Part shown: piece by piece, positions 4,078 to 63,620 of the stretch
Layout: each line of letters starts with the position of its first letter
How positions within the stretch are numbered: position 1 is the stretch's first letter
Source: an uncultured candidate division Zixibacteria bacterium
GTDB lineage: Bacteria; Zixibacteria; MSB-5A5; UBA10806
Assembly: GCA_963801605.1 (NCBI GenBank)
Contig: CAWDFP010000006.1
Coordinates: forward strand, 1-64,000
Reading direction: 5' to 3'
DNA: 64,000 nt
Position numbers and translations under genes: made by a program
The notes under the pieces: generated by a model
Told to the model about the DNA's origin: nothing
Seen by the model: the letters and a program-made list of their open reading frames with translations, nothing else
The model's database searches: none

Positions 4078-4166
4078 CGATGAGCACTGCCAGTACACGG
4101 GTAACCATACTGCACCCCTTTTCTCTTGTTATTGGGAAAAGGGGTGTGTTTTTTAGAGGTGTAACA

Positions 4167-6962: not shown

Positions 6963-7088
6963 TGTTAAAACCGCCAAGGGGTTTTGACCTACAATATAGA
7001 CTCCGTAGCGGGCATTCAATAGCATACCTCTCCCCTGGCAGCATCTTCTAAAGCATAAAATTTTGATTTTGGGGCAGGTGCTATTAAA

Positions 7089-7259
7089 GCGTCAGGTCTC
7101 GTCCCGATAAAATAGGGATACGACCTGACGCAACCTCAATAAGCTGCATTTTTCCCGGCTAAGGTCGGATAATACATGCTTACCTCGTTCTGAGGGACTC
7201 GGAAAGCATGCCACCCAGGTATGTTTTAAAGTGGCAGGTTCAAAGACCTAGCACCACAG
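7089..7259. repeat. Cluster of REP-like palindromes
   Basis: gcgtcaggtc...gacctgacgc (7089-7131) followed by aacct; catgctt...aagcatgccaccca (~7175-7217); both unit types recur at 8393-8522. Confidence 0.65.
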
Positions 7260-7270
7260 ACTTTTGAGGT

Positions 7271-8165
7271 TCAAAAGGTAATTTGTCTAATTTCCCCGCC
7301 GTTCCATTTATAAGTATACAGCCTTCCATAACCTTTGCGAGTATCAGTAAAAACAACTTTTTCGCCGTCGGGTGAAAAACAGGATAAATCGGCAAAGGAG
7401 CGCATCGGACGAGCCAAACTGCGTCCCGGGTCAACCGCCCAGATACTCTCAGACTCTCCAGGCTGAACGGCGCAAAACGCGATTCGCTTGGTTCGAATAT
7501 ATTTTCATTCCATAATAAGTAACAATGTTATTTTGCGGCGGCATTACTACTCGTCCGAAATAGCCGAGCGTATCCGATATGCAGATTGACTGCACCGGGA
7601 AATTTCTATCTTGATTTACATAAAGAAGCGAATCGCCGGTAATCCAATTGGGAAAATCACAATAGGGGACAGCCCTTCTTATAAAGCCGCTTTCCAAATT
7701 CATAATATAAATTCCCATTCTAAGGCTCGTGCGAACCGAATAGGCGATAAATCTTCCATCAGGAGACCAGACAGGATTCCAGCATTCTCCCTCAACCGGT
7801 AACGTATCCGCCTGGCCGGAAGGGTATGAAATTCTAACCAGCCTCCCATTGGAATTAGCGATTATATAATTGCCGTAGGGTGACCAATCGGGATCTGAGA
7901 TATACCAGCCTTGATAAAGGAGATTTTTGCCGCTGCCATCGGGATTAATAATATAGATACCGTTTGAGTCCGGATCGTCCGAGTCGACATATCTCTTATG
8001 AACATAGGCAATAATATCGTTTGCTGCGGACCAGGCAGCATAAGAATCTAATGTAGTTGTGGGCAGAATTCGATCAGGGCCTGTTGATTTATTTTCACAC
8101 CCAGCATCGACGAGAATAAGGGTAAGAAGCAAGAAACTGATAAGCTTGATTGAAAAATACTTCAA
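7271..8165 (-). CDS. TolB-like beta-propeller (PD40 repeat) lipoprotein, one frameshift near 7495
   Basis: Lipobox VDAGC; PDWSPYG and PVWSPDG repeats; after removing one base the frame continues ...CFSPDGEKVVF...IRQITF* to 7271. Confidence 0.7.
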
Positions 8166-18408: not shown

Positions 18409-18464
18409 TCGTCATAATATAAGCCCCGCCGTTAGACCAGCAACCGATTTTTTGTGAAAGGCAA

Positions 18465-19316
18465 GTGATGAAAGCGGATGACATCGTGGGCATTCTGGAA
18501 AAGCATGACGGGGAGAGCGGCGGGCTGATCTCGATACTGGAAGCAATCCAGGCGAAATACAGCTACCTTCCCGAAGAGGCTCTCAAATTAGTGGCGAAAG
18601 AAACAGGTCGTCCTCTCGTAGATATCTACGGGGTGGCGACCTTTTATCGTTCGTTCAGCCTCAAGCCGCGCGGCAAGCATCTCCTGTCAGTCTGCCTGGG
18701 GACTGCCTGCCATGTCAGAAATGCCCCATCCATAGCAAAGGAAGTACAAAAGCAGCTTGGCGTCAAGCCGGGCGAGACTACTCCGGACAAGGAGTTTACC
18801 TTTGAGACCGTCAATTGCCTGGGCGCCTGTGCGCTGGGGCCGATTGTAGTCATTGACGGCCATTACTTCTCCAATGTCAAAGCCTCGATGGTAAAGGATA
18901 TTTTGGAGAAAGCTCAGCAAGGCCTCGACAACATCGGCGGAAAAGCCGGTGCGGGGGCTTTCCCGATTGAAGTTGGTTGCCCTCATTGCAATCATACTCT
19001 CATGGACGAGACTCATTATATCGATGGTTATCCATCGGTGCGGGTCACGGTATCATTTGGACGGCTGCACGGATGGCTGAGGCTATCCTGTCTTTACGGC
19101 CGAACTCCCGTGACTTATGAGCATCTCATCCCCAAAGATGCGGTCGTGAATTTTTTCTGTCCGCATTGCCATAGCGAGCTCAACGGCGCATCGCATTGCG
19201 CCGACTGCGGCGCCCCCATGGTGCCGATGATCGTGCGCCAGGGAGGGATTGTGCAGATCTGTTCCCGGCGTGGATGTAAGGGACACATTCTCGATCTGAC
19301 CGGCGTGAATATTTAG
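18465..19316 (+). CDS. NuoE/HydC-like [2Fe-2S] subunit with an extra C-terminal Cys-rich domain
   Basis: VCLGTACHV...VNCLGACALGP; extension containing CPHC, CPHC, CADC and CSRRGC. Confidence 0.85.
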   Translation: MMKADDIVGILEKHDGESGGLISILEAIQAKYSYLPEEALKLVAKETGRPLVDIYGVATFYRSFSLKPRGKHLLSVCLGTACHVRNAPSIAKEVQKQLGVKPGETTPDKEFTFETVNCLGACALGPIVVIDGHYFSNVKASMVKDILEKAQQGLDNIGGKAGAGAFPIEVGCPHCNHTLMDETHYIDGYPSVRVTVSFGRLHGWLRLSCLYGRTPVTYEHLIPKDAVVNFFCPHCHSELNGASHCADCGAPMVPMIVRQGGIVQICSRRGCKGHILDLTGVNI

Positions 19317-19330
19317 GAGAGGGAGAAACA

Positions 19331-22300
19331 ATGGCACAACTCAGATCGATAGATAATTTTAGAGCTCTTCGCGACCGCCTGATGTCTGTGATCGATCCCG
19401 AAATCCCCACCATTGTTATTTCGGCGGGGACTTGCGGACAGGCCAGCGGCGCAAACGATCTTATTAGAATCGCGAAGCGCGAAATATTGACTAAGAAATT
19501 AAACGGAAAAGTCCATCTGCGTATCACCGGCTGTCATGGATTCTGCGAAATGGAACCATCAGTCTTAATCGAACCCAGCGGCGTATTCTACCCTGAGGTT
19601 GGCCTTGAGAATATGGCGCGGATCGTTGAAGCGGTGGCGAAAGATGTGGTCCTCGAAGACTTGCCCTTTGTGGACCCCCAGACCGGACGGCCGGTGATAA
19701 GGCAGGTGGATATTCCGTTCTTTAAGAAGCAACTTCGCACCATCCTGTCACGAAACGAGAAAGTCGATCCCATCAGGATTTACAACTATATCGAAAACGG
19801 CGGTTATGCATCGCTGGCGGCAGTACTCGATATGGGCGATCCTGAATGGGTGACGTCAGAGGTTAAAGACCTCCGGCCTTCGCGGACGGGGCGGCGCGGG
19901 ATTCCCGACCGGCCTTAAATGGGAGTTATTAGCCAAACAAAACGGCAAGAACGGCAAATATTTAGTGTGCAATGCCGACGAGGGCGACCCCGGCGCGTAT
20001 ATGGACCGCAGCGTTCTTGAGGGCAATCCTCACAGCATTATCGAAGGGATGCTAATCGGAGCCTACGGCACCGGCGCCACGGAAGGCGTTATCTATGTGC
20101 GAGCCGAATATCCGTTAGCTATCAAGCATCTCATCATCGCTCTTCGGCAGGCGCGTGAACTTGGTCTTCTGGGCAAAAATATCCTCGGTACCGATTTTTC
20201 GTTTGATATCAGGCTGGTCAAAGGCGCCGGAGCTTTTGTATGCGGCGAAGAGACAGCATTGATTCGATCAATTGAGGGTAAAGTCGGCGAACCGAAGCAG
20301 CGTCCACCCTACCCGGTGCAGAAGGGTATTAATGGCAGGCCGACGGCGATTAACAACGTAGAGACCTGGGCGAATATCTCAGTCATTTTCGAGATGGGAG
20401 CTGAGGAGTTTGCCAAAATCGGCACCAAGAATAATTCCGGCACCAAAATTTTCAGCTTGGTCGGTAAAGTCAAATACACCGGTTTGGTTGAAGTACCGAT
20501 GGGCACCACGATCGAGACGATTGTAAATGAGATCGGCGGCGGACCATCGGGTAATGCCCGGATTAAGGCCGTTCAAACGGGCGGTCCATCCGGCGGCGCT
20601 ATTCCAGCAGCGATGTTCAATCTACCAATTGACTATGATAGTCTTGCCAAAGCGGGATCGATCATGGGTTCAGGCGGTATGATCGTCATGGATGAGAACA
20701 CCTGCATGGTCGATATCGCCAAATATTACATGAATTTCCTGAAAGATGAATCGTGCGGGAAGTGTTTCACCTGCCGCAAGGGCACTCAGCGGATGTTTGA
20801 AATATTGGACGATGTCACCAAAGGCAAAGCCAATATGGCCAGCTTGGATCTCTTAGAAGAATTGGCCGTAGTCGTTAAAGACACCACTATGTGCGGTCTG
20901 GGAAATACGGCGTCCAATCCGATTCTATCCACGCTGAAATATTTCAAGCATGAATACGAGAAACATATCTGGGATCAAAAGTGCGACGCGTTCGTCTGCA
21001 AAGACTTAGTTGGAGCCAATTGCCAATCGGCTTGCCCGATAGGGACCGAGGCCTGGCGTTATGTGGCTCATTTGGCTAAAGGCGAATATCAGGAAGCATA
21101 CGAAGCGATTCGCGAAACCAATCCCTTCCCATCGGTCTGCGCCAGAGTTTGCGATCACCGGTGCGAGAGACGCTGCAAGCTGGGAACCACCGGGCAGGAC
21201 CCGGTCGCTATCCGGGCGCTCAAGCGTTTCATCACGGACCGGATCGATCCTCTATCTTATAAGCCTGTCAGGGAATCAAACTTTAACGGTGACGCTCCTC
21301 ATGTAGCGATCATCGGTTCCGGCCCGGCAGGCCTGACCGCGGCGCATTATCTTTCGCTCAAGGGATACAAGGTTACGGTTTTCGAGGCTGAAAGCGAACC
21401 GGGCGGAATGCTTACCTGCGGTATACCATCTTATAGATTGCCGCGCGAAATCCTGAGGAAAGAGATCGAATCGTTAATCGATGAGAATGTCACTGTCAAA
21501 TGCAACAGCGTTCTCGGACGCGATATCACAATCGACGGTCTCTTCAAAAAGGGTTTTAAGGCGGTCTTCTTAGCCCTGGGCGCTCACAAGAGCCGCAAGT
21601 TGGGAGTCGAAGGCGAGGATATCAAGGGAGTCTACCCGGCCATTCAATTCCTCAAGGATTTTAACCTGAGAGGAAAACGGACGGCCAAGGGACATGTCGG
21701 TGTTATCGGCGGCGGCGATTCCGCTATCGATGCCGCTCGAGTGGCGCTTCGCCAAGAGGGCGTTAAGAGCGTTACGATACTCTATCGCCGAACCCGCTCC
21801 GAGATGCCGGCACTATCCGAGGAAATCGAAGCCGCCGTTCAAGAGGGTATCAAACTTGAAACTCTGGTCTCCCCTCTTAAGATCGAAGCCAAAGAGGGCA
21901 AGCTGACCGGAATCAGCTGTATCAAAAACAAGCTTGGTGAACTCGATGCCAGCGGCAGACGCAATCCTGTGGCGATTCCCGGAACGGAATATAAAGTGCC
22001 GCTCGATACGCTCATTATCACCATTGGCGACGTGCCCGATATCGATTTCATCTCCCAAATGGGAATTGAGATCACCGATAAGGGCACAGTCAAATACGAC
22101 CGCGAGACGCTTTTGACCAGCAAGCCCGGAGTATTCGCAGGCGGCGATGTCACCACCGGACCTAATACCGTGGTTCAGGCAATCGCAGCCGGCAAGAAAG
22201 CGGCTAAGATGATCGAGCGCTTCATCGCGGGTGAAACTCTGCGGCAGCCATCGTTAGCTTATCTTCCCGCCCACTATGTAGAACCGTTTACACTCAGCGA

Positions 22301-22493
22301 GGAAGAGGCAAAGGACGCCAAACGCGCTGTCCCACCCAGCATGCCGATAAAAGACAGACGGTCGAGTTTCTCTGAGGTAGAGATGACTCTATCGGAGGAC
22401 GAAGCTGTTTTCGAGGCTCGGCGTTGCCTGCGGTGCGACCTGGAGTTCACACAAAATCAGGATACTGAAAGCGTCGGAGGCAAGGTAGCGTGA
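19331..22493 (+). CDS. NuoF/HydB-like FMN/NADH subunit fused to a GltD-like FAD/NADPH domain, one frameshift near 19866
   Basis: [21 protein letters not shown] (after removing one base), [39 protein letters not shown]; then CQSACP, NPFPSVCARVC, IIGSGPAG, VIGGGDSAID, EARRCLRC. Confidence 0.88.
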
Positions 22494-23167
22494 TAAACTT
22501 AAGAATAAATGGATTAAAGGTCGCAGTCGAGGAAGGCTCGACCATATTAGAAGCCGCACGCTTTCTGGGATTCCCGATTCCTACCTTATGCCACATGGAC
22601 GGCCTGACGCCATACGGCGCTTGCCGGCTGTGCGTGGTTGAGATTGGAGTCGGCCCCAAGGCGAAACTGGTATCATCATGCACCTATCCGGCCGAGGAGG
22701 GTATGGTTGTCCGGACTGCCTCGAACCGGGTAATAAGAGCGCGCAAAATGGTGATTGAGCTTCTCCTGGCCACTTGCCCGCAATCGAAAGTGATTCAGGA
22801 CATAGCCTCATCGCTTGAGGTTCGCCAGCAGCGTTTCAAACAGGAGCATGAGGACTGCATTCTATGCGGTCTCTGTGTGCGGATGTGTTCGGAGCAGATG
22901 ATGGCGAAAGCGATCGGTTTCCGCGGGCGTGGGGAAAAGCGCAGCCTGGGAACACCGTTTGATGCTAAATCGGAAGTCTGCAGACTGTGCGGCGGCTGTA
23001 TTTATGTTTGCCCGGCCTGCCAATTGAGATGCACCTATACCGAAAAAGACAGCGCGATCTGCGGAGGCTGCGCCAATATCAGTCCGCCATGCATTGAAAA
23101 AGAAAAGTTCGACGACATGATGTGTTATATGAAGCCTTGTGTTGCCTGTGAAATTAAAAAGGATTAG
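22490..23167 (+). CDS. Short NuoG/HoxU-like Fe-S subunit with an 8-Cys tail
   Basis: IPTLC...GACRLCVVE...SC [2Fe-2S]; CILCGLCVRMC and CRLCGGCIYVCP; no catalytic domain. Confidence 0.85.
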   Translation: MINLRINGLKVAVEEGSTILEAARFLGFPIPTLCHMDGLTPYGACRLCVVEIGVGPKAKLVSSCTYPAEEGMVVRTASNRVIRARKMVIELLLATCPQSKVIQDIASSLEVRQQRFKQEHEDCILCGLCVRMCSEQMMAKAIGFRGRGEKRSLGTPFDAKSEVCRLCGGCIYVCPACQLRCTYTEKDSAICGGCANISPPCIEKEKFDDMMCYMKPCVACEIKKD

Positions 23168-23180
23168 AGGAGGATATTAA

Positions 23181-24827
23181 ATGTCACTTTCCCGGATTAA
23201 CGCCTCAGCCGCAACCTTGACCAAAAACAGAACTGAGGGGTCCGTAGTCCCTGCTTCGGGCATGTGCGTGACATGCGTGGACGGTTGCATCGGAATGTGC
23301 GAGATAGGCAAATCGGCCTACAGGGGACACGAGGTCATCTACCCTCAGCCGTTTGGGGTCATCACGACCGCGGCCGAGAAACTTTACCCAGTCGATTATT
23401 CCCATTTTAACATTATGGGTACCGCCGTAGGGGCGCATGGTATTGCCGCCGACAGCGATAAAGCAATTTTCCCGGCTGTCAATCTTCAGGTTATTATGGG
23501 ACACGATAAGGGACTCAAGTTTCGTTACCCCTGGATCATCCCCGGTATCGGTTCAACAGATATTGCCAAGAACAACTGGGAAGGCTTAGCCATCGGCTCG
23601 GCTCTGTCCGGCACCGGCCTGACTATCGGCGAAAATGTGGCCGGCATGGATCCCGAAACGATCATGAAGAACGGCCGTGTTGTCGATACCGCCGATCTTA
23701 AGCGGCGCGTGAAGCTTTACAAAGATTATCAGCATCACGGCTATGGCGCCATCATCGTCCAGGCCAATGTTGAGGACACCCGGTTAGCGGCGCAGGAATA
23801 CGCCATCGAAAAGCTGGGCGTCGAAGTTGTAGAAATGAAGTGGGGCCAGGGCGCCAAGGATATCGGCGGCGAAGTAAAGATTAAGAGCCTCAAGAAAGCT
23901 CAGATGCTTTATGAGCGCGGCTATATCGTTCTGCCGAATCCGACAGATCCAAATGTCATCGCGGCTTTTGAGCGCGGCGCATTTAAGGAGTTCGAGCGTC
24001 ACTCCCGCGTTGGGATGGTATCGGAGGAATCGTTTGCCGAGCGAGTAGACCAGCTTCGCAAAGCCGGCGCCAAGTATGTGTTCCTGAAGACCGGCGCGTA
24101 TCGTCCGGCGGACTTAGCTCGCGCAGTAGCTTTTTCATCGAAATATAAAATTGATCTGCTCACGGTCGATGGCGCCGGCGGCGGCACCGGTATGAGCCCC
24201 TGGCGCATGATGAATGAGTGGGGCGTTCCACCGGTTGAGCTTCACACCCTGTTATATCAATATGTCAAACAGCTTAGCGACAAGGGTAAATATGTACCAG
24301 CGATCGCCGTGGCCGGCGGCTTTACATTCGAAGATCAAATCTTCAAAGGCCTGGCGATGGGCGCGCCGTTTGTTAAGATGGTCGGTATGGCTCGTGCTCC
24401 GATTGCCGCCGCTATGGTTGGTAAGACAATCGGTCAGGCAATTGAAGCCGGTGAGCTTCCTGTTTACGTGGAACGTTTCGGCGGCAATAAGGACGAAATT
24501 TTCGTGACAGCCAGCGAACTTCGCAAAGAACTTGGCGAGAAAGAATTCGACAAGATTCCGTGCGGCGCACTCGGTCTTTACACTTACTACGAGAGACTGG
24601 CCCAGGGACTTCGGCAGCTCATGGCCGGCAGCCGTAAATTCTCGACGGAGTACATTTCGCGCGACGATATTGCGGCGCTGACTCACGAAGCATCCGATCT
24701 TAGCGGCATTCAATATATTATGGATGTCGACAAAGAAGAAGCAGAGAAAATTCTCAGCGCGAACGGGCATCGTACGGCAGTCAAACAGATCGGCAGTGCG
24801 AAGAAGCGCGTGACGCGCACGAGATAA
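23181..24827 (+). CDS. FMN-binding glutamate synthase family protein (stand-alone domain)
   Basis: EMKWGQGAKDIGGE, LKTGAY, TVDGAGGGTG, AGGF; N-terminal CVTCVDGCIGMC. Confidence 0.85.
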   Translation: MSLSRINASAATLTKNRTEGSVVPASGMCVTCVDGCIGMCEIGKSAYRGHEVIYPQPFGVITTAAEKLYPVDYSHFNIMGTAVGAHGIAADSDKAIFPAVNLQVIMGHDKGLKFRYPWIIPGIGSTDIAKNNWEGLAIGSALSGTGLTIGENVAGMDPETIMKNGRVVDTADLKRRVKLYKDYQHHGYGAIIVQANVEDTRLAAQEYAIEKLGVEVVEMKWGQGAKDIGGEVKIKSLKKAQMLYERGYIVLPNPTDPNVIAAFERGAFKEFERHSRVGMVSEESFAERVDQLRKAGAKYVFLKTGAYRPADLARAVAFSSKYKIDLLTVDGAGGGTGMSPWRMMNEWGVPPVELHTLLYQYVKQLSDKGKYVPAIAVAGGFTFEDQIFKGLAMGAPFVKMVGMARAPIAAAMVGKTIGQAIEAGELPVYVERFGGNKDEIFVTASELRKELGEKEFDKIPCGALGLYTYYERLAQGLRQLMAGSRKFSTEYISRDDIAALTHEASDLSGIQYIMDVDKEEAEKILSANGHRTAVKQIGSAKKRVTRTR

Positions 24828-53002: not shown

Positions 53003-53458
53003 TTATCTGCCGTAGATATCCAATAGCTGAAGCCTGGTGGCGTCGAGGCGTTCTGCCATGATTTCCGTGAATATCTGCATCATTTTAAATCCAAGTCCGT
53101 TATCCTTCTCGCATTTTGTACGAAGGCATTTACCGTCAAGAGCGATGACCCGGGTTTGCTCAGTTGCCTTAGCGTCAAAACGCCATTTATATGGTGGAAT
53201 AAGCCACGACCAGCCAACGACGTCACCCTCGGTGCAAGTTTGAATGCAAATAGACCCTTGCCATGGGGAGAAAACTTCCACAATCACACGACCATGTCGG
53301 ATGACATAGAAAGTGTTAGCCTCCTCACCCTCTTTGAAAATATATTGATCAGAATTAAAGACAACATTGGAGGCGCATCCCACCATGAGTTTGATTTCGG
53401 CATCATTGAAGCTTTTAAAAAATGGATGAGATATTAGCAAAGGTTCAATTGTTTCCAT
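53003..53458 (-). CDS. Stand-alone cyclic-nucleotide-binding (Crp-like, no HTH) protein
   Basis: IFKEGEEANTFYVIRHG, GDVVGWSWL, RLDATRLQLLD. Confidence 0.85.
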   Translation of the reverse strand: METIEPLLISHPFFKSFNDAEIKLMVGCASNVVFNSDQYIFKEGEEANTFYVIRHGRVIVEVFSPWQGSICIQTCTEGDVVGWSWLIPPYKWRFDAKATEQTRVIALDGKCLRTKCEKDNGLGFKMMQIFTEIMAERLDATRLQLLDIYGR

Positions 53459-53972
53459 TTTTTTGCTCCTTATCATTGACTTTTTGCCTGATTGCCAGGC
53501 TATTCCCACCATTAAAACCGATCCAGTTTAGGATTCGATTTATGGCTGGTTCCAATGCTGCCTCTACCAGAGGGGTCAATTTCTCACTTAATGTCTGGAT
53601 ATCCATTGCTTCTATAGCAAGGACGTCAATCCTATCCGGCATGCTAATTCCCATTTCGCGACCAAATTTCAAAGCCGTCGGAAGGTTAATCTGATGACTG
53701 CAGGTCAAATTCTTTGAGGGTACAAAATGGCCCATTTCAGTAAAATGAAGAGTGCCCGGAACCGCTTCATCGGTTATGATAGTATCAACAATTAGCGCCC
53801 GTTCTCTGTCTTTCAATAAGTCAATGAGATTTAGCCCGCCCAAGGGCGAGAATTCAATATCTACTCCTCCATTAAAATCGTATTGCTCTATAAGATTGCG
53901 GGCAATTTTATAGCCGAATGAATCGTCTGACAAAATCTCATTCCCCAGGCATAATACAAGCGCTGGTTTCAT
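53445..53972 (-). CDS. Hydrogenase maturation protease
   Basis: LCLGNEILSDD, IVDT, SHQ. Confidence 0.88.
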   Translation of the reverse strand: MKPALVLCLGNEILSDDSFGYKIARNLIEQYDFNGGVDIEFSPLGGLNLIDLLKDRERALIVDTIITDEAVPGTLHFTEMGHFVPSKNLTCSHQINLPTALKFGREMGISMPDRIDVLAIEAMDIQTLSEKLTPLVEAALEPAINRILNWIGFNGGNSLAIRQKVNDKEQKNGNN

Positions 53973-55454
53973 TAGTTCCTCTTGATAACCTTGATTTTCT
54001 CGCCGCTGGCAGCATCATGAATAATTAATTCAAGAGGCATTTGCCCCGGCAATGAGTGAGTTGCGCAACCAAAGCAGGGGTCATAAGCTCGGAAAGCCAT
54101 CTCGATTCTATTGAGCATGCCGTCAGTAATTTCGCACCCCTTTTTAATCATACCCTCAGCGGCGCGCTTGATTGACATGGTAATCGCGGCGTTATTGTTC
54201 GTCGTCCCGACAATAAGATTAGCCTCGGTGATAATGCCGTTTTTATCCGTCCGATAGTGATGAGTTAAAGTCCCTCGAGGCGCTTCTACTATTCCAACTC
54301 CTTCACCAACAATGCTTGTGGGAGGATCAAGAATATGATCTGACGTGATCTCATCATCCTGCGCCTGTAAGAGAACCGACTCGCAAGCGAACATAAGCTC
54401 CACAACTCGCGCCCAGTGAGTCGCCAGAGTGGAATTTACCGGTATTTTGCCGGAACGATCCCCGGTCAGCGTTTCATAAAATCTTTCATATTCCGCTTGA
54501 GCCAGCGGTGTAGCCATGCCATCGGATACATTAAGACGCGAAAGGGGAGTTGCTTTATACACACCCGAATCCATACCGTCGATAAATCCCTTCCAACCGA
54601 TCTTTTTTAGGAATGGATATTTCAAGTAACTGTATGGCTCAACATGCTCGGCGACATATTCAAGATATTGTTTCGGTTCATATTTGGCGTGTTCTGTGCC
54701 GTCAGGCGCTGTTACGCGAACCATTCCGTCATAGAAATGAACCTTGTTGTTTGAATCTACCAGCCCCATATTATAAGTCTTATGGGCATATGAATCTGAG
54801 AGGATAAGATCGATATACGCCTTATTTGCCAGGACGACATCATTCAAAACTTTAATGGTAAATTTGGCAAATTCAACCATCTCCTGCCCAATCTTAATCA
54901 TTTCCTGCTGTTCTTCTTTGGTCACCCGTTTCGACATCCCGCCGGGAAGGGCGGTAACGGGATGAACCTTCTTGCCGCCGATTATTTCGATGACCCTCTG
55001 GCCGCGGGCTCTTTGGGCAATGACTTTCCTGCCGGCATCAAGGCCAACTTTGGCGATTACACCCAGGATATTACGCTCGGCAGGGAGGAGCATCTGGGCC
55101 ACAGACAAAATCAGGGCCGCCGAGGGCATAAAAATGCGTCGTATGGTCGCCGGCATAGAAACCGTTATATACCAATTCTCTCAGCTTAAAGGCCGCCGAT
55201 GGGATTTTTGCTCCATAGACTGCATCGGCGGCCTTGGCTGCTGCCATGTGGTGTGCATCCGGGCAAACGCCACAGATGCGGGTTGTGATGCGACACATTT
55301 CTTCAACGGGACGGCCCACGCAAAATTTTTCAAAACCTCGAAGTTCAGGTACCTGGAAGTAGGCATTGGCGAGATCTCCATCGTCATTAATAAACAAATG
55401 TATTTTACCGTGGCCTTCGAGGCGGGTTATCGGATCGATTACTATCTCTTTCAT
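53972..55454 (-). CDS. mvhA: [NiFe]-hydrogenase large subunit, group 3c MvhA-like, frameshift near 55085
   Basis: [38 protein letters not shown] plus a cleavable tail. Confidence 0.88.
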
Positions 55455-56426
55455 CTTTGTGCTCTCCTCAACATTGAATCGGGAAGGCTAAAGCGATAAA
55501 ATGTGCCGATGGGATCGGGAATCGTATCGATTATTGACTCTATTTCCTCCGGATTGGTTGAATCGATGATGCTGGCAATCGCGGAGGCCATTTTGGCTCC
55601 CTGGTCGCGCACATTGGAAGGCATCCCGTAACAGCCGCGGCAGGGGACTCCAGCCTTAACGCATTTGGCGCCGCATCCGCTTCTGGTAGCCGGTCCCATG
55701 CAAACTATGCCCTGCTCCATCAGACATAAATTTGGATCTGTCACCTTTTCAAACGGCCTGATAAACTTCTTTATCTTTCTTGATATTCCTCTCTCGCGGA
55801 CATTCATCACAGCAACTTTTTTCGCTCGCGCCCAAGACAGTCCCTTTGGGCGGAAGTGGCTTTCCGTTCTTTCAGGATATCGATAACCGCTCCAACCACC
55901 GCTGCGATCTGATCGGATTGCGGCGGGCAACCGGGAATGATGTAATCAACTTCCACAGTTTGCCCCAAAGTGCGCACCGTATTCCACAAATCGGGAATTC
56001 TGTATTTCACCCTCAGGGAGCGTTATAGATCGGTTGAGGTATCGTTTTTGTTGGATTATCTACAGAAGGCGAATTTAGATAGACGTAGTCAAATATTGCC
56101 TGCTTGCTATAAAGATTGGCCAGACCGGGAATGCAACCTTCGGCAGCGCAACTTCCAAAGGCACAAAGGACCACCGATTTCTGCCGCAGGAGCTTGGCGA
56201 TTTCATAGTTTTCATCGCTGCGAATTGCGCCGTTGAATAGTGTCAGCGTAATTGATTTATCGGGCATTTTTCTAACATCGTCGTACTTAAAATCAAGGGC
56301 ACAAGGCCAGAATATGGGATCAAAAAAGTCTACCACGCCAAGTATCTTCTCTTCAATATCAAGTATGGCGATATCGCATCCCCCACAAGAAGCAGCCCAA
56401 TATATTGCTAACTTTGGTTTTGCCAT
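55451..56426 (-). CDS. mvhG: [NiFe]-hydrogenase small subunit MvhG-like, several frameshifts
   Basis: WAASCGGC, AFGSCA, IPGCPP, CLMEQG.VCMGPAT..GC, PCRGCYG spread over successive frames. Confidence 0.85.
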
Positions 56427-56890
56427 AACATTTCTCCCAACGCCTTAAAGTCAACAGTCTCTTCTTTTTCCGGCGTAAAATTCAGTTCTTTCAACTGAAG
56501 CGGCCCCAATGCGCGGATATGCTCGGTAAATTCAGTAACGATCTTCTGAAAACGCCCTCCCTCTGATGCCGAGACCCATTCCAGGCGCAGCCGCTCCGAT
56601 TCGATACCCATGCTTTGGAGAATCCTTTTCGTAAGAGGCATCCGGCGCATGCATTTGTAATTCCCTTCCACATAGTGGCAATCGCCGGGATGGCAACCGC
56701 AGACAAGTATCCCATCGGCGCCTTTGCTGAAAGCGTGCAATATGAAGCCGGGATCGATTCGCCCGCTGCACATAACCCTGATACTTGTCATGTTTGGAGG
56801 ATACTTCATACGGGCGGTACCGGCCAGATCGGCGCCAGTGTAGCTGCACCAGTTGCACAAGAAGCCAACTATTTTGGGTTCAAAGCTCAT
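56408..56890 (-). CDS. mvhD: MvhD [2Fe-2S] subunit
   Basis: FLCNWCSY, RVMCSGR, GCHPGDCHY, WVSASEG. Confidence 0.92.
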   Translation of the reverse strand: MSFEPKIVGFLCNWCSYTGADLAGTARMKYPPNMTSIRVMCSGRIDPGFILHAFSKGADGILVCGCHPGDCHYVEGNYKCMRRMPLTKRILQSMGIESERLRLEWVSASEGGRFQKIVTEFTEHIRALGPLQLKELNFTPEKEETVDFKALGEMLWQNQS

Positions 56891-58645
56891 GATAGTATTC
56901 CTTCTATTTGAGCGTAAATCTGATCGTCGGTGAAGTGCTTGGCAACTATCGCGCCCGACGGACATGCTGCTACACATGTACCGCAGGCTTTGCACATAGC
57001 CGAGTTGACCGAGCTTTTCTTTTTCTCGCTATCAAATTCAATAGCATTATATGAACAAAGATCATTACAGATTCGGCATCCACTACATAAATCTTCAGTG
57101 ACCACCGGCAAAGGCGGCATCCATCAATATCTCTTTCTGACAAAGAAGTTTTAAGGCGTGAGACGCCGCCGCCCCGCCTTGCGCTACAGTATCGGGGATA
57201 TCCTTTGGCCCCTGGCAGGTGCCGGCGAGATAGATGCCATCTGTTGTAGTCGAAACCGGTCCGAGCTTGGGGTGAGCCTCAATAAACCAGCCATCAGCTC
57301 CTGTGGAAATGTTGAATTTGCGGCCAACCTCCTTGGCATCTTTTCGGGCTTCAAGGGCAGTGCAGAGGATTACCATATCGACGGGGATCTCGCGGAATTT
57401 CCCGACCAGCGTATCTTCGCAACGAACTAGAAGATATCCTTCCGATCCGCGATGGCTCGAAGATGGGACAATCTCAGCCCCTTTGCCGCGAATGATATTT
57501 ACATTCTCTTCCAGTATCCGCTGATAGAACTCCTCATAACCTTTGCCGAAACTTCTGACATCGATATAGAGCTGATAGACCTCAGCGCTGGTTTTCTCCT
57601 TAACAAGGTGCGAGAACTTGAAAGCGTACATACAACAGACGCGGCTGCAATACTTATGATAATTTTGATCGCGACTTCCGATGCAGTGAAGAATGGCGAT
57701 TGCGCGCGGTTCCTCACCATTCTCAAGAACGATTTTACCACCGGTCGGTCCCGCGGCGTTGTTCATCACTTCAAATTCCTCTGACGTGATAACATTGGGG
57801 TACTTACCATAACCATATTGTTTCATAGGAGAAGGATCAAAATTATCAAAGCCGGTGGCCATAATGACCACGCCAACATCCACTTCCTCAAATTGCTCGG
57901 TATCATCGTAATGAATGCAATCCTTGGGGCATACCTTGGAGCAGACTTTGCATGCCCCGGTCTTAAAATGAATGCAGAATTCGGGGCTAATTCGTGGCAC
58001 GTTGGGGACTGCTTGCCTGAATGGAAGCGAAATTGCAGAATTGGGCCCCAGCGCCACCTCGTGATGAATTATCTCGCGACCGTCAATGTCCTCTAATCTG
58101 ATATGTCCCGTAGGACAGACTTTGGCGCAGGCACCGCAAAGAATACAGTCCTCGCTGGCATCATCGAATGGAGTTGAGACCTTTCTATACACTCCCCGGT
58201 CGCTGAAGGCCAGAGCATGAGCGCCAACAATTTCATCGCAGACACGTACACACAGTCCGCACAGAATGCAAGTATCGTCGCCCGTACCCCAGCGCGGCTT
58301 TTCTATCCCGAACTGTTGGGCCAACTGCTGCAGAACCGGAGCTGGAGCGCAGCGGCTTAACAGCATTTCCAAATTAACCCTGCGAGCATTCTGGACACGA
58401 GGCGTATCGGTGAATATTTTCAAACCCTTCCAGACCGGATAATTACAGGATGTAACTATCTTCGACCAGTCCTTATCATCACGTGCCTCAACCACGCAAA
58501 TACGGCAGGCGGCATAGGGCGTCATGTAGGGATAGTAGCAAAGGGTTGGGATATTCACGCCCAGTGTCCTGGCGGCCTCAAGAACAAACGTTCCCTCTTC
58601 AACTTCAATCGGATGCCTGTCTATTTCTATTTTTATCATGCTCAT
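56887..58645 (-). CDS. hdrA: Fusion of a NuoG/HoxU-like Fe-S domain to the C-terminal half of HdrA, frameshift near 57112
   Basis: IPTLC...ACRICVVE, CILCGLCVRVC, CILCGACAKVCP; then PFRQAVP, VGVVIMATGF, HCIGSRD, YCSRVCCMY, AGTCQGPKDIP and a terminal 2x[4Fe-4S] domain. Confidence 0.88.
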
Positions 58646-58654
58646 AGATTTCTC

Positions 58655-60673
58655 CTATGCCACCGCCGATTGCTTTGATACTTTTACCGGTGGACGCCAG
58701 TCTACGCCGGCGATATTTTGGACACCTTCGCCCTCACCCCGTTTGGCTCTGGTTATGCCATCATATTTACAAATCTGATAACAGGCGCCACACTGAATGC
58801 ACTTTTACCTGATCTATCTTATGCAAATTTTTTAATTCGCCTGTGATCGCCTTACTGGAGCACGCTTTGACGCAGGCATGACATCCCGTGCATTTAGCAT
58901 TGATAGCGTGCGAAACCAGATCCTTACAGACTCCTGCCGGGCAGCGCTTATCCTTGATATGCGCCAGGTATTCCTGACGAAAATATCTTAGGGTGGATAG
59001 ATACGGATTGGGCGCGGAACCGCCGAGTTGACAAAGGCTGGTATCGATCATAACCTGCGAAAGTTCTTCCAACAATGACAGATCTTCCATTTTACCCTGA
59101 CCCTCTGGTAATCCGATCAAGAATTTCAAGCATCGTCCGCAGCCCCTCTCGGCAGGGCAGACACTTGCCGCAGCTTTCCTCCCTTAAGAAATTGAGGAAA
59201 TAACGGGCAACATCAACCATGCAGGAGTCCTCATCCATGACAATCATGCCGCCTGATCCCATCATCGAACCTGCCCTGGTCAAGCTCATCGAAATCGACA
59301 GGAAGATCGAGGAGACTGACGACTTCTTCATTGTCATGGATATCGCCGTGCGCTACGAGACTGTCATGAATTTTCTTCTCGCCGGTTTCGACTATCAAGG
59401 TTCCGCCTGATGGTCCCCCGGTTTGCACGGCCTTAAATTTTTTGTGGCCGCGCACTCCACCACCGATATCATAGAGAATCTCCCGCAAGGTGATCCCCAT
59501 GGGAACCTCTACCAAACCAGTATTATTGACCTTTCCTGTCAGACGCGAAAACCTTGGTGCCTTTGGAGCCTTCGGTCCCAATACCGGCATACCAATCGGC
59601 CCCCTTTTCAATAATGATTGGGACATTAGCCCAGGTCTCTACATTATTTAGAGTTGGATGGCTTTTCCCAGAGTCCAGCATCAACGGTATGAATATATTT
59701 GGCTCGCGGTTCGCCCGTTTTACCCTCTAACGATGCCATAAGCGCTGTTGATTCGCCGCAGACAAAAGCACCACCGCCCGCGACTAACCTCAATTGTAAA
59801 ATCAAAACCGCTTCCCAAGATATTCTTTCCCAACAGGCCATATTCGGTAGCGGCATTTATAGCGATCGAGAGATTTTTTACTGCTAACGGATATTCGTTT
59901 CTGACATATACAAATCCCTGGTCGCTGCCAATGGCGTAAGCCCCGATTATCATCCCCTCAACTACCGAGTGAGGATTGCCCTCCAGAAGCGAGCGATCCA
60001 TGAATGCTCCTGGATCACCCTCATCGGCATTGCAGATCACATATTTCGGGATTCCCCTTGGCTTTACGACAGGACGCCCATTTTTTGCCGGTGGGATATC
60101 CTCCGCCTCCTCTTCCACGAAGCCCCGATTTTTTTATCTCCTCGATAATTGCTTCAGGCACCATCTGGCCTAATGCCTTGGCTACTGATTTATATCCGCT
60201 CAAGGCGATGTAATCATCGATCGAAGTCGGATCCATAAAACCGTTTTTGCCGAAGATGAGTCGCATCTGCTTTTTATAGAAGGGAATATCGGCTTCATGG
60301 GTGATTGCTTGCTTGGTTTGGGGATCTTGATACAGAAGACGCTTAATGATCTGATTGCCTTTTATGGTCTGATCAATTATTAGTCTGACATCCGATGGTC
60401 TGAACCTTTTGATAAAAAATCCCTCCAGGTTGAATAACAACAAGTGGTCCTCGCTCACAAAAACCGTGACAACCTGTTGTTTTAAGCTCGACAGCTTCCT
60501 GAAGATTGTCTTGAATCAAGTTCTCTTTGAACGCAGTTGCAACCGCCTCACAGCCGCAGGCCAGACAACCGGTCCCGGCGCAAAGGGCTATAGTGGTTTT
60601 ATTTTCCTTACGCTTTCTGAGAAGTTCCTGGCGAAGCTCGCTCCAGATCTGCTGGCGATGATATAAATTTCAT
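58655..60673 (-). CDS. NuoF/HydB/HoxF-like FMN/NADH subunit, many frameshifts
   Basis: [79 protein letters not shown] and two terminal CxxCxxC motifs in colinear order across frames. Confidence 0.82.
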
Positions 60674-61185
60674 TCTTCTTCCTCCTCATCGCCAGCCGCT
60701 TCCTTGCCGCCAAGCTTTTCAATCATCCGCTCGACTTTGGACGCAGTCATGTTACCGTAGTAGATATCATTGGCAGTAACAAGCGGCCCCAGCGCACAAG
60801 CGCCAAGGCAGTTTACCGTTTCCAGACTGAAACTCTGGTCTTTGCTCGTCTCGCCGGCTTGGATACCAAGCGTGGTTTCAAGTCTATTAACAATAACATT
60901 CGCTTGCCTGACATGACAGGCAGTACCGGTACAAACACAGATATGATTTTTCCCTTTAGGCTTTAGGCTGAATGTGCGGTAAAAAGTAGCCACACCGTAG
61001 ATTTGTGCTATTGGAAGCCCCATCTTCTGCGCCACCAGTTTTAATGCTTCTTTGGGAAGGTAGCGATAATGCTTTTGAATATCTTGCAAGACCATGATTA
61101 GGGCCGTTGGCTTGGCCTGATAGTGATCCACAATATTGTGAATGGCTTGTTCGAGATCATAGTTATCATTGATTGCCAGGCTCAT
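60670..61185 (-). CDS. NuoE/HydC/HoxE-like [2Fe-2S] subunit
   Basis: YGVATFY, VCTGTACHV, VNCLGACALGP. Confidence 0.9.
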   Translation of the reverse strand: MSLAINDNYDLEQAIHNIVDHYQAKPTALIMVLQDIQKHYRYLPKEALKLVAQKMGLPIAQIYGVATFYRTFSLKPKGKNHICVCTGTACHVRQANVIVNRLETTLGIQAGETSKDQSFSLETVNCLGACALGPLVTANDIYYGNMTASKVERMIEKLGGKEAAGDEEEEE

Positions 61186-62155
61186 TTGGTACCTCCTCTC
61201 ACCGGAATTGCGACTGGTTCCGGCATCGGCTGCGCCCCGGTAAGAACTGTGAGATCATGCTCCGGCCCCATGATACCCGGATGCTTGATATCCAAAGCCG
61301 CACCCTCCTTGAAAACATTTTTGCCGAACATCAATCGCCGGTGCGATGGATACTGACGACTGGGGCAAGCTTCATAGCAAGTTCCGCAACTATTGCATAG
61401 GGTTGTATCGACATAGCGGGCTTTATGCCTGATTTTGACAGTGAAATTCCCGATGTAGCCCTTAACATTCTCGATTTCTGCCCATGTAATGAGTTTGATA
61501 TTGGGGTGCTTCCCCACAGAGACCATCTTCGGAGTCAGGATACAAGCAGCGCAATCAAGGGTTGGAAATGTTTTGTCGAATCGCGACATGTGGCCACCGA
61601 TCGAGGAATCTCTTTCGACTAAAACCACTTCAAAACCGGCGTCGGCTATTTGAAGGGCCGCTTCGATACCGGCAATTCCGCCGCCGACTATAAGGACTCT
61701 ATCCTTGATTGGTACTTTTCGCATTTCAAGAGGCTCATGAAATCTCACTCTGGCTATAGCCCCTTTTATAAGAGCGATTGCCTTGGTTGTGGCTAACTGC
61801 GGATTCAACGTAACCCAGCTGACCTGCTCTCTAATATTGGCCATCTCAAAGAAATAGCGATTGAGGCCGCCCGTCTCCACTGCCTTACGAAATGTTTGCT
61901 CATGCATCAGAGGGCTGCAGGCAGCCACGACAATTCTATTGAGACCAAGCTCTCGAATATCTTTTTGAATCAAGTTCCTGACCGGGATCGGAACACATGA
62001 AACGGTAATGACGCGAGATCGACAACTCCCGGCTGATCCTGAACCGCTTCGGCGACTTTGACCACATCCACCGTTTTAGCAATATTAGTTCCGCAATGGC
62101 AGACATAGACGCCAATGCGGATCTCCTTGCCGTTATCTGAATGGGTATTATTCAT
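61182..62155 (-). CDS. hdrA: N-terminal half of HdrA, frameshifts near 61975 and 62020
   Basis: IGVYVCHCGTNIA, FMCSDPG, VAACSP, IVGGGIAG, DKTFPTLDCAAC, RYVD..LCNSCGTCYEACP, then a non-HdrA tail and stop. Confidence 0.85.
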
Positions 62156-63036
62156 GCTCTGGCCTCCTTTAGGCCGACATAAAGTTCCTCCGGCTTAATT
62201 AATAGCTGGTCCATTCCCATTTCTTTCGGAGAAATACCAAGCGCTATTCCTATCAGATGACTGAAATAGACTATTGGCATTTTGAAATTTCGTCCGTAGA
62301 CTCGATTAATCTTCCGCTGGTAGGCCTCGAGGTTCATCTGGCAAAGCGGGCAGGCTGTTGCGATCATATCGGCTCCGTTGTCAAGTGCGCCATCCAGAAG
62401 CTTGAGATTCAGCTCCAGGGCAATCTCCTCAGCGGTGGTCATAAGCATCCCGCCACAACAGCGAACTTTGTAGGGATAATCAATCGGTTCAGCTCCCAGA
62501 GCGGCCAGCAGCTTATCCATCGTTACGGGTTGATCGACATCATCGAATTGCCCATGCGGACGGACTATCTGACATCCGTAGTAAGGAGCTACCTTTATTC
62601 CCTTTAAATTATTACTGACTTTTTTGGTAAGCGCTTCAAGGCCTAAATCGTTAACAAGAATATCCAGCGGATGACGCACCTCAACCAGGGTATCATAAGA
62701 TAGATTGGCTGCAGCAAGTGCCTGGTTAATTTTATCTCTTTCCTTGGGATCCCAGGCGATATGACGGTTGGCCTTGCGAAGGATCGTATAGCAACTGCTG
62801 CATGGCGCGCAAATTTGCATCCCCATGTTTTGAGCAAGAGCCAGATTGCGAGCGCTGATCGAATATCCTACGATTTTTTTGACTGACATATACATCGTGG
62901 CGCCGCAGCAATTCCAATCCTCAATCTCATGCAGGCCGATCCCCAGAGCCTTAAATACTGCCCTTATCGATTTATCATAAGGGCCGGCAGTGTGCTCCAA
63001 ACTGCATCCGGGATAATAGGCGTATTCCAGCATCAT
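62152..63036 (-). CDS. hdrB: Heterodisulfide reductase subunit B
   Basis: YYPGCS, WNCCG, PCSSC, YYGCQ, CCGG, ACPLCQMNL. Confidence 0.93.
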   Translation of the reverse strand: MMLEYAYYPGCSLEHTAGPYDKSIRAVFKALGIGLHEIEDWNCCGATMYMSVKKIVGYSISARNLALAQNMGMQICAPCSSCYTILRKANRHIAWDPKERDKINQALAAANLSYDTLVEVRHPLDILVNDLGLEALTKKVSNNLKGIKVAPYYGCQIVRPHGQFDDVDQPVTMDKLLAALGAEPIDYPYKVRCCGGMLMTTAEEIALELNLKLLDGALDNGADMIATACPLCQMNLEAYQRKINRVYGRNFKMPIVYFSHLIGIALGISPKEMGMDQLLIKPEELYVGLKEARA

Positions 63037-63620
63037 CCTTCTCCAAACTGATTGGCTTTATTAATAATGGCGCGAATCTCTTTAATCCGCTTCAAGCTCT
63101 TTGGCAGAAGCCCGAGGCGACGATTCTTGATCATGGTCAATCCAAAGCGAAAATTTGGGAATAATTTCACAATATTGGTGCTTAAAATATACTTCAAGCC
63201 GAGTCCCAATTCGTAATTTCTGCCGTATTTATAAACGTTATCCGTAAATGTTTTTGATAGAGTATGAACCGGGAAACGCAATGGATATATCTGCTTTTCC
63301 ATGGCGATTCGTTTGAGGGCATATAACGTATCGGTTATCTTAATCCCCACGGGACATCGTACCGTGCACGAATAGCATGAGGCGCATAGCCAGATCGCTC
63401 GACTCCGAAGGATATCTTCCATCATACCAGCCCTAAACAATGCCACAATTTGTCGAGGAGTAATATCCATTGCATACGAGACCGGGCACGAGCCCGTACA
63501 GGTACCACACTGAAGACAAAGCTTGATTTTGTCTCCTTCAGGGAAACTTCCGACCTGGTTCCAAAAGGCGGCACGCAGATCAGCTTCTTTTTTGGGGAAA
63601 GGCATTATAGCATCTTTCAT
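63033..63620 (-). CDS. hdrC: Heterodisulfide reductase subunit C
   Basis: CLQCGTCTGSCP and IWLCASCYSCTVRCP. Confidence 0.92.
   Translation of the reverse strand: MKDAIMPFPKKEADLRAAFWNQVGSFPEGDKIKLCLQCGTCTGSCPVSYAMDITPRQIVALFRAGMMEDILRSRAIWLCASCYSCTVRCPVGIKITDTLYALKRIAMEKQIYPLRFPVHTLSKTFTDNVYKYGRNYELGLGLKYILSTNIVKLFPNFRFGLTMIKNRRLGLLPKSLKRIKEIRAIINKANQFGEG

Follow-up and report, generated by a model that had tools for sequence, protein, structure and literature searches.

Heterodisulfide reductase subunit HdrA split around a Bfu-type NADH module in a hydrogenase operon of Zixibacteria and related bacteria

Flavin-based electron bifurcation is the main route by which strict anaerobes obtain low-potential electrons without ATP, and to our knowledge only a handful of types of bifurcating module have been recognized. 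In HdrA, electrons bifurcated at the flavin adenine dinucleotide (FAD) leave in one direction to HdrBC and in the other through the N-terminal cluster and an inserted ferredoxin domain to ferredoxin (PMC9012536; bioRxiv 10.64898/2026.04.10.717634). The closest characterized system to the one described here is the class II benzoyl-CoA reductase (BCRII) of Geobacter metallireducens, Bam[(BC)2DEFGHI]2 or “Bam-Bfu”, described as the only characterized enzyme that joins HydBC/Bfu-type and HdrA-type modules, together with an MvhD-like adaptor and an HdrBC-like subunit (bioRxiv 10.64898/2026.04.10.717634; Schut 2022). In BCRII, electrons enter through BamGHI, the Bfu part, and pass from BamI to the C-terminal ferredoxin-like domain of BamE, then to BamF and the FAD; they leave by way of the inserted ferredoxin domain for a tungsten module (bioRxiv 10.64898/2026.04.10.717634). 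Here, these systems are compared with a locus in a 64,000-nucleotide stretch (the window) of the genome of an uncultured candidate division Zixibacteria bacterium (assembly GCA_963801605.1, contig CAWDFP010000006.1, positions 1 to 64,000). Reading frames and Pfam identify a tight cluster of ten genes on the minus strand at 53445-63620, in which hdrA is split within the sequence encoding its inserted ferredoxin domain and genes for an NADH module stand in the gap.

The genes run in the order hdrC, hdrB, hdrA-N, nuoE, nuoF, a fusion of a NuoG-type N-terminal domain to the C-terminal half of HdrA (NuoG-N::HdrA-C), mvhD, mvhG, mvhA and a gene for a HycI-type protease. A sequence-only reading of the window had proposed this order and these identities, ATGA overlaps at two of the junctions and a ggag ribosome-binding site for the fusion gene, and all of these were borne out by Pfam, the reading frames and the sequence itself. 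The hdrA-N gene (61182-62155, minus strand; Pfam FAD/Rossmann and one Fer4 motif) encodes the cluster domain at the N-terminus, the beginning of the FAD (thioredoxin-reductase-like) domain, the first of the Cys motifs in the inserted ferredoxin domain (H1, at 61365-61397) and a tail of about 60 residues. At 61182-61185 an ATGA combines its stop codon with the start codon of nuoE, and GAGAGGAGG lies upstream. The nuoE gene (60670-61185, minus strand; 171 aa; Pfam 2Fe-2S_thioredx, E 1.4e-51) encodes a BfuC/HydC-like [2Fe-2S] subunit and overlaps nuoF, again as ATGA, at 60669-60672. The nuoF gene (58655-60672, minus strand) encodes a BfuB/HydB-like subunit for flavin mononucleotide (FMN) and NAD(H); its product has about 670 residues in relatives, while the window copy is in pieces, on which Pfam recognizes Complex1_51K and NADH_4Fe-4S. 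The fusion gene (56887-58645, minus strand) has GGAG before its ATG at 58645, and its frame runs over 57095-58645 and carries on in another frame to 56887. It encodes a BfuA/NuoG N-terminal domain (Pfam Fer2_4 and a Fer4 dicluster), with a [2Fe-2S] motif at 58496-58540 and [4Fe-4S] motifs X1 at 58238-58270 and X2 at 58115-58147, followed by the HdrA part.

Alignment to solved structures places the break inside the inserted ferredoxin domain of HdrA, where the sequence-only reading had put it. Residues 13-265 of an HdrA-N protein with an intact frame align to residues 5-258 of 5ODC_A and 13-266 of 8RVU_a, both methanogen HdrA, and the match ends directly after the first CxxCxxCxxxCP motif of the inserted domain. 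The tail that follows is absent from HdrA and carries a conserved GPxHDLTxLTGAQPMPE. In the fusion, residues 4-191 match BfuA-type N-terminal domains (best 9MQX_A, E 6e-34, then 8A6T_A and 7T2R_A), and residues 166-584 align to 5ODC_A 245-650. The two HdrA pieces jointly cover 5ODC_A 5-650, and the HdrA of 7BKB likewise matches both halves.

Between them, the two chains have four Cys motifs of the ferredoxin type. HdrA-N has H1 at its end, the BfuA part contains X1 and X2, and X3 lies shortly ahead of what remains of the FAD domain. The flank before H1 (“ARYVD..C”) is HdrA-like, the flank after X2 (“CPTGHI”) is NuoG/HydA-like, and “LPFRQAVPNVP” before X3 is an HdrA linker, to which the stretch past X2, LGPNSAISLPFRQAVPNVP, corresponds. 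H1 is invariant in 34 of 34 HdrA-N sequences, and X1, X2 and X3 in 40 of 40 fusion sequences. In the same sets, the Cys residues of the N-terminal cluster, the TLDCAAC pair, the FAD-domain cluster and the C-terminal ferredoxin Cys residues are also invariant. The HdrA ligand set is therefore kept, with eight Cys in the inserted and eight in the C-terminal ferredoxin domain, the N-terminal cluster and the FAD fold. The TLDCAAC pair is the Cys pair around the equivalent of Cys197. In a 2x[4Fe-4S] ferredoxin fold, each cluster is held by three Cys of one motif and a fourth from the other, and by this rule H1 and X3 would share two clusters across the two chains. The protein P0134 has the same elements in a single chain, with the FAD domain, H1 (105-115), the BfuA domain with its [2Fe-2S] motif (185-199), X1 and X2, then X3 (380-395) and the HdrA-C part. 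Judged by this order, the BfuA domain has the topology of an insertion into the ferredoxin domain. Three further proteins vary the layout: P0129 has MvhD fused at the C-terminus, and P0124 and P0128 (about 1090 aa) have a second HdrA-like FAD unit. An AlphaFold2 model of the fusion alone, from 26 aligned sequences, had a mean pLDDT (predicted local distance difference test) of 52 and a pTM (predicted template modelling score) of 0.33, too low for use.

On this evidence, the operon probably encodes one MvhAGD-HdrABC complex that hands low-potential electrons to a Bfu core reducing NAD+ and ferredoxin. Assembly into one complex is likelier than the flow model as a whole, whose direction and stoichiometry are less certain. 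The sequence-only reading had likewise inferred a single complex joining H2, NAD(H), ferredoxin and a disulfide. The proposed particle would be a cytoplasmic supercomplex of a group 3c [NiFe] hydrogenase/heterodisulfide reductase, with HdrA in two polypeptides and a HydABC/Bfu-type module in the break. HdrA-N would contribute the N-terminal cluster, the start of the FAD domain and motif H1 of the inserted ferredoxin domain. The BfuA-type domain, with one [2Fe-2S] and two [4Fe-4S] sites, would lie between H1 and X3 and dock the BfuB/BfuC core with its FMN, NAD(H) site and ferredoxin site. H2 would be oxidized at MvhA and would reduce the FAD, which would then bifurcate. The high-potential electron would pass via HdrC and HdrB to a disulfide, and the low-potential electron would pass via the inserted ferredoxin domain on to BfuA and BfuBC rather than to free ferredoxin. 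The BfuBC core would then reduce NAD+ and ferredoxin together. The placement of Bfu on the low-potential branch is suggested by the construction of BfuA into the ferredoxin exit of HdrA.

A bolder version of this scheme, to be held only tentatively and with somewhat less than an even chance of being right, is that the complex is a hydrogenase acting on four substrates, with two bifurcation sites of different kinds in series and a wiring opposite to that of BCRII. Electrons from H2 would be divided at the HdrA FAD, with a disulfide on one side and a branch of very low potential on the other; instead of discharging to ferredoxin, this branch would be the “third substrate” of the Bfu FMN/iron-sulfur site and would be split again to NAD+ and ferredoxin. 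If so, H2, thiol/disulfide, NAD(H) and ferredoxin would be coupled in a single enzyme by group 3c hydrogenases in many bacteria that are not methanogens, and HdrA would offer, in its inserted ferredoxin domain, a socket of general use, fitted elsewhere with an NfnB-like domain or the Bam(BC)2 module and here with Bfu.

Several observations weigh against a Bfu core fed with low-potential electrons from HdrA. A Bfu core normally accepts electrons of mid potential, about -400 mV (PMC9304861), and feeding it from the low-potential branch of HdrA wastes driving force, with no obvious benefit to the cell. In BCRII, the only solved enzyme with both HdrA and Bfu, the Bfu module stands at the input and confurcates electrons from NADH and reduced ferredoxin. 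No DsrC was detected in the genome that contains the window, whose estimated completeness is 86.9%. Lastly, two related loci, L037 (2622-5317) and L044 (2304-4993), retain both split and fusion but lack a local nuoEF, hdrA-N being directly followed by the fusion, and no close BfuB-type gene was found in either genome (completeness unknown); the BfuA domain can thus serve without BfuBC. The HdrA-N proteins of these two loci are shorter and lack the tail motif, and in a quick tree the loci are nested rather than basal, with weak support.

The alternative that survives best, though it is clearly the less probable, keeps the supercomplex and reverses the Bfu module. BfuBC would confurcate electrons from NADH and reduced ferredoxin and push them via BfuA and the inserted ferredoxin domain into HdrA, for fermentative H2 evolution (as a NiFe analogue of HydABC) or for disulfide reduction driven by NADH and ferredoxin, with the HdrA FAD as a relay or switch. 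The confurcating role of the HydBC-type module in BCRII is a direct parallel, Bfu reactions are reversible (PMC9304861), and genome papers depict related bacteria as fermenters that have to re-oxidize NADH and ferredoxin. However, the module is attached at the low-potential exit of HdrA rather than at its input, and the input path, through the C-terminal ferredoxin domain and MvhD, is already occupied by MvhAG. On thermodynamic grounds, a supply of electrons at about -400 mV to the low-potential branch should not suffice for H2 formation plus thiol oxidation. Reversal would also leave HdrBC, which is always conserved, without a role. Electron flow from HdrA to the Bfu core, rather than back, is the reading preferred here.

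A full-length NuoF with an intact frame has its best solved matches, along its whole length, in 8A6T_B (bifurcating HydB; E 4e-224) and 7T2R_B (NiFe-Bfu; E 3e-223), whereas respiratory Nqo1/NuoF match only the NuoF core, at E 1e-111 or weaker. In 38-39 of 39 NuoF sequences, the N-terminal [2Fe-2S] ligands (C33/C38/C70/C74), the B1 ligands (C501/C504/C507/C547), the B2 set (C484/H571/C577/C582, spaced as C438/H525/C531/C536 of Acetomicrobium mobile) and the eight Cys of the C-terminal 2x[4Fe-4S] domain are conserved. The B2 His and clusters B2-B5 are described as absent from non-bifurcating homologues (Schut 2022, PMC9304861). The NuoE [2Fe-2S] ligands C85/C90/C126/C130, present in 32 of 32 sequences, are the BfuC ligands. 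The BfuA part has one [2Fe-2S] and two [4Fe-4S] motifs in 40 of 40 fusion sequences, among which no His-ligated cluster motif was found; type 2 BfuA is reported to hold three clusters (Schut 2022, PMC9304861), and the three motifs here probably correspond to these. NuoE, NuoF and the BfuA part accordingly fit the sequence description of the Bfu family given by Schut et al. 2022, and they do not fit group 3d Hox or respiratory NuoEFG, since the B2-B5 ligands are present and MvhA is closest to 5ODC_F. The sequence-only reading had called the module NuoEFG/HoxEFU-like: it was right that an NADH module lies in the gap, but by its B2-B5 ligands and its matches to 8A6T_B and 7T2R_B the module is classed as HydBC/BfuBC-type (bifurcating), neither Nuo nor Hox.

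It is accordingly improbable that NuoEF is a plain, non-bifurcating NAD(H) diaphorase of the Hox/Nuo kind, which would make the complex an H2:NAD+ or NADH:disulfide oxidoreductase with one bifurcation site, the HdrA FAD, or none. Such an assignment would agree with the earlier Nuo/Hox label, with Pfam, which sees only the generic Complex1_51K, NADH_4Fe-4S and 2Fe-2S_thioredx families, and with several solved Bfu enzymes in which zinc, and not a cluster, occupies B2. Yet bifurcating B subunits match over the full length and far above Nqo1/NuoF, and the N-terminal [2Fe-2S], the C-terminal 2x[4Fe-4S] and the marker His are near-universal; these are the features by which Schut 2022 (PMC9304861) separates bifurcating from non-bifurcating enzymes.

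The NuoF proteins of these loci have a further peculiarity, an insertion of 24 residues that is present in 39 of 44 split-locus NuoF (in L048, gene at 5976-7988, residues ~425-452; in the window, ~59280-59400) and absent from solved HydB chains. The insertion could be a contact surface specific to the complex. A pairing of this insertion with the HdrA-N tail was considered and rejected as not clean: by the pattern used, the tail motif occurs in 30 of 40 tails and the insertion in 39 of 44 NuoF, and there are loci with one only.

Evidence that the split is not peculiar to the window came from a scan of one genome per species, from which 79 loci were kept. In 49 of these (L001-L048 and L051; the split set) the match to the fusion covers its full length, and the other 30 (Chloroflexota, Thermoguttaceae and others), which match only from about residue 133-167 onward, are ordinary HdrA and served as the comparison set. 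Wherever the sequence of a split locus reaches at least 3.6 kb upstream of the fusion, in 35 of 35 cases, hdrA-N, nuoE and nuoF are present, intact and in the same order. A nuoE match was found in 43 and a nuoF match in 45 of the 49 split loci, and neither in any of the 30 unsplit loci. In polished relatives the genes are intact, with 323-325 aa for hdrA-N, 170-173 for nuoE, 669-677 for nuoF and 583-588 for the fusion, and a four-base overlap is the commonest spacing at hdrB/hdrA-N, hdrA-N/nuoE, nuoE/nuoF, fusion/mvhD and mvhG/mvhA. The split is genuine operon design, far beyond chance, as the sequence-only reading had argued; that reading had also asked whether the fusion and the hdrA-N/nuoE/nuoF synteny would recur in other genomes, and both do.

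Within the phylum of the window, 252 of 285 genomes have some HdrA match, and by a count of listed rows about 48 of the 285 have the full-length fusion and 3 more a partial one. One of these loci, L048, is in a genome of the same genus (G260); that genome also has a second, divergent full-length copy of the fusion on a separate contig (G260:C9:12426-14195; 50% identity). The window genome itself has an ordinary HdrA (G000:C6:952673-953822), which is 49-58% identical to the HdrA part of the fusion. Labels of the split loci further include Calditrichota, Eisenbacteria, Deferrimicrobiota, Electryoneota, GN15 and others, many of them automatic labels of metagenome-assembled genomes. In a protein library clustered at 50% identity, the BfuA-N::HdrA-C layout was found in 12 of the best 150 representatives. 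In the quick tree, built from the HdrA-C part with 78 rows and with Shimodaira-Hasegawa-like approximate likelihood ratio test (SH-aLRT) support, all 48 split forms lie on one side of a long branch (SH-aLRT 100, length 0.48). The split forms may accordingly be one clade, and a single origin is compatible with this tree.

Not all split loci have the same cassette. L005, L021, L027, L034 and L040 encode a different, shorter NuoF like that of HydBC operons; in L005 it has 609 residues and lacks the 24-residue insertion. In the three variant loci with upstream DNA (L005, L027 and L040), about 3 kb separates hdrA-N from nuoE, and in L005 (2301-6140), the one scanned, this gap encodes DRTGG, CBS+HATPase, DRTGG, PHP and HATPase proteins. 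It looks as if a classic HydBC cassette had replaced the usual nuoEF in L005-type loci. Such exchange, with the DRTGG/CBS-HATPase/PHP genes ahead of nuoE, might suggest two separate enzymes that are merely co-transcribed, one of them an Mvh-Hdr complex whose HdrA is in two pieces, the other an independent NADH:ferredoxin enzyme resembling BfuABC, and a shared gene neighbourhood is no proof of binding. This is very improbable: in every solved Bfu enzyme BfuBC docks on BfuA, which is joined covalently to HdrA-C in 49 of 49 split loci, Pfam finds no separate BfuA gene in the operon, and nuoEF stands beside an unsplit HdrA in none of the 30 comparison loci.

The window copy of the operon is damaged. 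Alignment to the intact proteins of L048 reveals at least 12 frame changes within about 9.7 kb: two in hdrA-N (near 62020 and 61975), seven in nuoF, one in the fusion (near 57105), one in mvhG and one in mvhA (near 55084), with one further change just past the nuoF start that brings nuoF to about eight. The mvhG gene is split over three reading frames. Several of the changes adjoin homopolymer runs and others do not, and the pieces keep 60-94% protein identity to L048. Other genes of the window are likewise broken into adjacent frames, and the ordinary HdrA of the window genome is also cut into two frames. Uncorrected long-read errors are the most likely cause, given a 3.06-Mb assembly in 14 contigs at an estimated completeness of 86.9% and the cuts in other window genes. 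That the feature is an assembly artefact or a decaying pseudogene cluster, split by frameshifts rather than by design, has the number of frame changes in its favour but can hardly be right, since polished relatives with intact frames have the same stop for hdrA-N and the same starts for nuoE and the fusion, the HdrA-N tail after H1 is conserved, the pieces remain similar to their L048 counterparts, and the other cut genes and the assembly profile fit uncorrected long-read errors.

The remaining genes of the operon, all on the minus strand, supply the other subunits of an Mvh-Hdr enzyme. The hdrC gene (63033-63620; 195 aa) encodes two [4Fe-4S] motifs (Pfam Fer4 dicluster, Fer4_8/Fer4_17), and its product is 78% identical to L048 HdrC over the full length. 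The hdrB gene (62152-63036; 294 aa) encodes two CCG domains (Pfam CCG, two stretches), and among chains of the Protein Data Bank its product matches the HdrB of 8RVU, 7BKB and 5ODC along the full length. Downstream of the fusion, mvhD (56408-56890; Pfam FlpD, E 1.2e-56) encodes the [2Fe-2S] adaptor; alignment to L048 MvhD places its start at 56890, and not at 56995 as in the sequence-only reading. The mvhG gene (55451-56426) encodes the hydrogenase small subunit, recognized by Pfam as Oxidored_q6 on two pieces, and mvhA (53972-55454; Pfam NiFeSe_Hases) encodes the [NiFe] large subunit. The window MvhA translation carries both hydrogenase motifs, L1 (ICGxCxxxH) and L2 (AYDPCccCATH), as defined by Poudel 2018 (PMC6085437), and the best solved match of an intact MvhA homologue is 5ODC_F. 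The hydrogenase maturation protease gene (53445-53972; Pfam HycI) has a homologue in 39 of the 49 split loci. The adjoining gene for a cNMP-binding protein (53003-53512, minus strand; Pfam cNMP_binding), which had been counted with the operon, lies outside the conserved unit, with a homologue near the operon in 0 of 49 split loci. In 23 related loci, a gene for a small protein with a DnaJ-type CXXCXGXG zinc finger follows the protease gene (e.g. L019 13092-13493), and HypF follows in nine; in the window no zinc-finger gene was seen at that place, where the cNMP gene stands. A promoter and terminator scan of the window gave 19 sites against 17.5 expected from shuffled sequence, which is no excess; one promoter-like site lies upstream of hdrC, at 63865-63837.

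Two other regions of the window, both on the plus strand, are of note. A second NADH-module cluster at 18423-24824 encodes a NuoE-like protein, a NuoF fused to a GltD/NfnB-like FAD domain (an 879-aa frame with Complex1_51K, NADH_4Fe-4S, Fer4_20 and Pyr_redox_2), a small NuoG-N-like protein that is 46% identical to the first 180 residues of the fusion, and a Glu_synthase-domain protein. This cluster may encode an Nfn-Bfu-like enzyme or a Bfu-linked enzyme of the glutamate-synthase type. At 3978-6959, a stop-free frame of 994 aa combines UbiD, SIR2_2 and many TPR repeats, and given the indel errors of the assembly it may be two or three genes read together.

The split-and-insert architecture is apparently undescribed. 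A full-text literature search, which did not reach one review of the HdrA(BC) module or the full clade table of Schut 2022, turned up no account of a Bfu module embedded in a split HdrA, and Table 1 of Schut 2022 (PMC9304861) lists no Hdr- or Mvh-linked Bfu type. The sequence-only reading had likewise not recognized the architecture. However, two coupled bifurcation modules are not without precedent: a 2026 preprint presents BCRII, in which they are wired the opposite way, as the first demonstration of HydBC/Bfu and HdrA modules coupled in one enzyme (bioRxiv 10.64898/2026.04.10.717634). The operon would be a second, independent and much more widespread coupling of Bfu and HdrA, with the order reversed and a hydrogenase as input. 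It bears on the role of “methanogen-type” Mvh-Hdr hydrogenases in bacteria without coenzymes M and B. Genome papers label such operons simply MvhADG/HdrABC, and metabolic reconstructions of Zixibacteria and their neighbours therefore probably misstate the balance of H2, NADH and ferredoxin. The architecture is also a concrete target for purification and cryo-electron microscopy.

Among known systems, the MvhAGD-HdrABC complex of hydrogenotrophic methanogens (5ODC, 8RVU) shares all six of its subunit types with the operon, where they are encoded together and with conserved cofactor ligands: MvhA with L1 and L2 and its best match in 5ODC_F, MvhG, MvhD, HdrB with two CCG domains and a full-length match, and HdrC with two [4Fe-4S] motifs. 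The methanogen HdrA is one polypeptide of four domains, whereas here, in 49 loci, HdrA is encoded by two genes with nuoE and nuoF between them, and the operon is for this reason not a plain member of that group. Where the methanogen enzyme reduces free ferredoxin, a BfuA domain with BfuB and BfuC is found instead. The heterodisulfide of coenzymes M and B (CoM-S-S-CoB) is an unlikely substrate here because Castelle 2013 reports no CoM/CoB biosynthesis in Zixibacteria RBG-1.

In the Fdh-Hdr-Fmd supercomplex of Methanospirillum hungatei (7BKB), the low-potential branch of HdrA is hard-wired to a partner, as proposed for the operon, and does not end in free ferredoxin. That partner is a polyferredoxin/formylmethanofuran dehydrogenase rather than a second bifurcating module, and HdrA is unsplit. 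HdrA variants with an NfnB-like domain in the inserted ferredoxin domain (some ANME-1 HdrA; HdrL-type) use the same insertion point (PMC9012536) and, like this operon, place a nicotinamide-linked module at the low-potential exit of HdrA. Those variants add an FAD/NAD(P)H domain within one chain, whereas here the insert is a BfuA iron-sulfur domain that would recruit a core for FMN, NAD(H) and ferredoxin from separate subunits, and hdrA is in two parts. NiFe-HydABCSL of Acetomicrobium mobile (7T2R; NiFe-Bfu, type 3) also combines a [NiFe] hydrogenase with BfuABC, and its large subunit 7T2R_D matches MvhA at E 4e-109. In that enzyme, the hydrogenase feeds BfuA directly via the A3 cluster; here the BfuA part lacks the motif for the His-ligated cluster, and hydrogenase and Bfu are separated by an entire module of HdrABC plus MvhD.

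The Bam and HdrL-type proteins had been cited by the sequence-only reading as precedents for combining such modules, and according to the literature cited here they are real ones. Compared with BCRII, HdrA here is split rather than duplicated, and Pfam finds no member of the aldehyde-oxidoreductase/tungsten family (BamBC) in the 22 reading-frame pieces of the operon. In BCRII, Bfu stands at the input of HdrA; here BfuA is fused into the inserted ferredoxin domain, on the output side, while MvhDGA holds the input side. Because Bfu is at the exit of HdrA in one system and at the input in the other, the wiring of the operon would be the reverse of that in BCRII.

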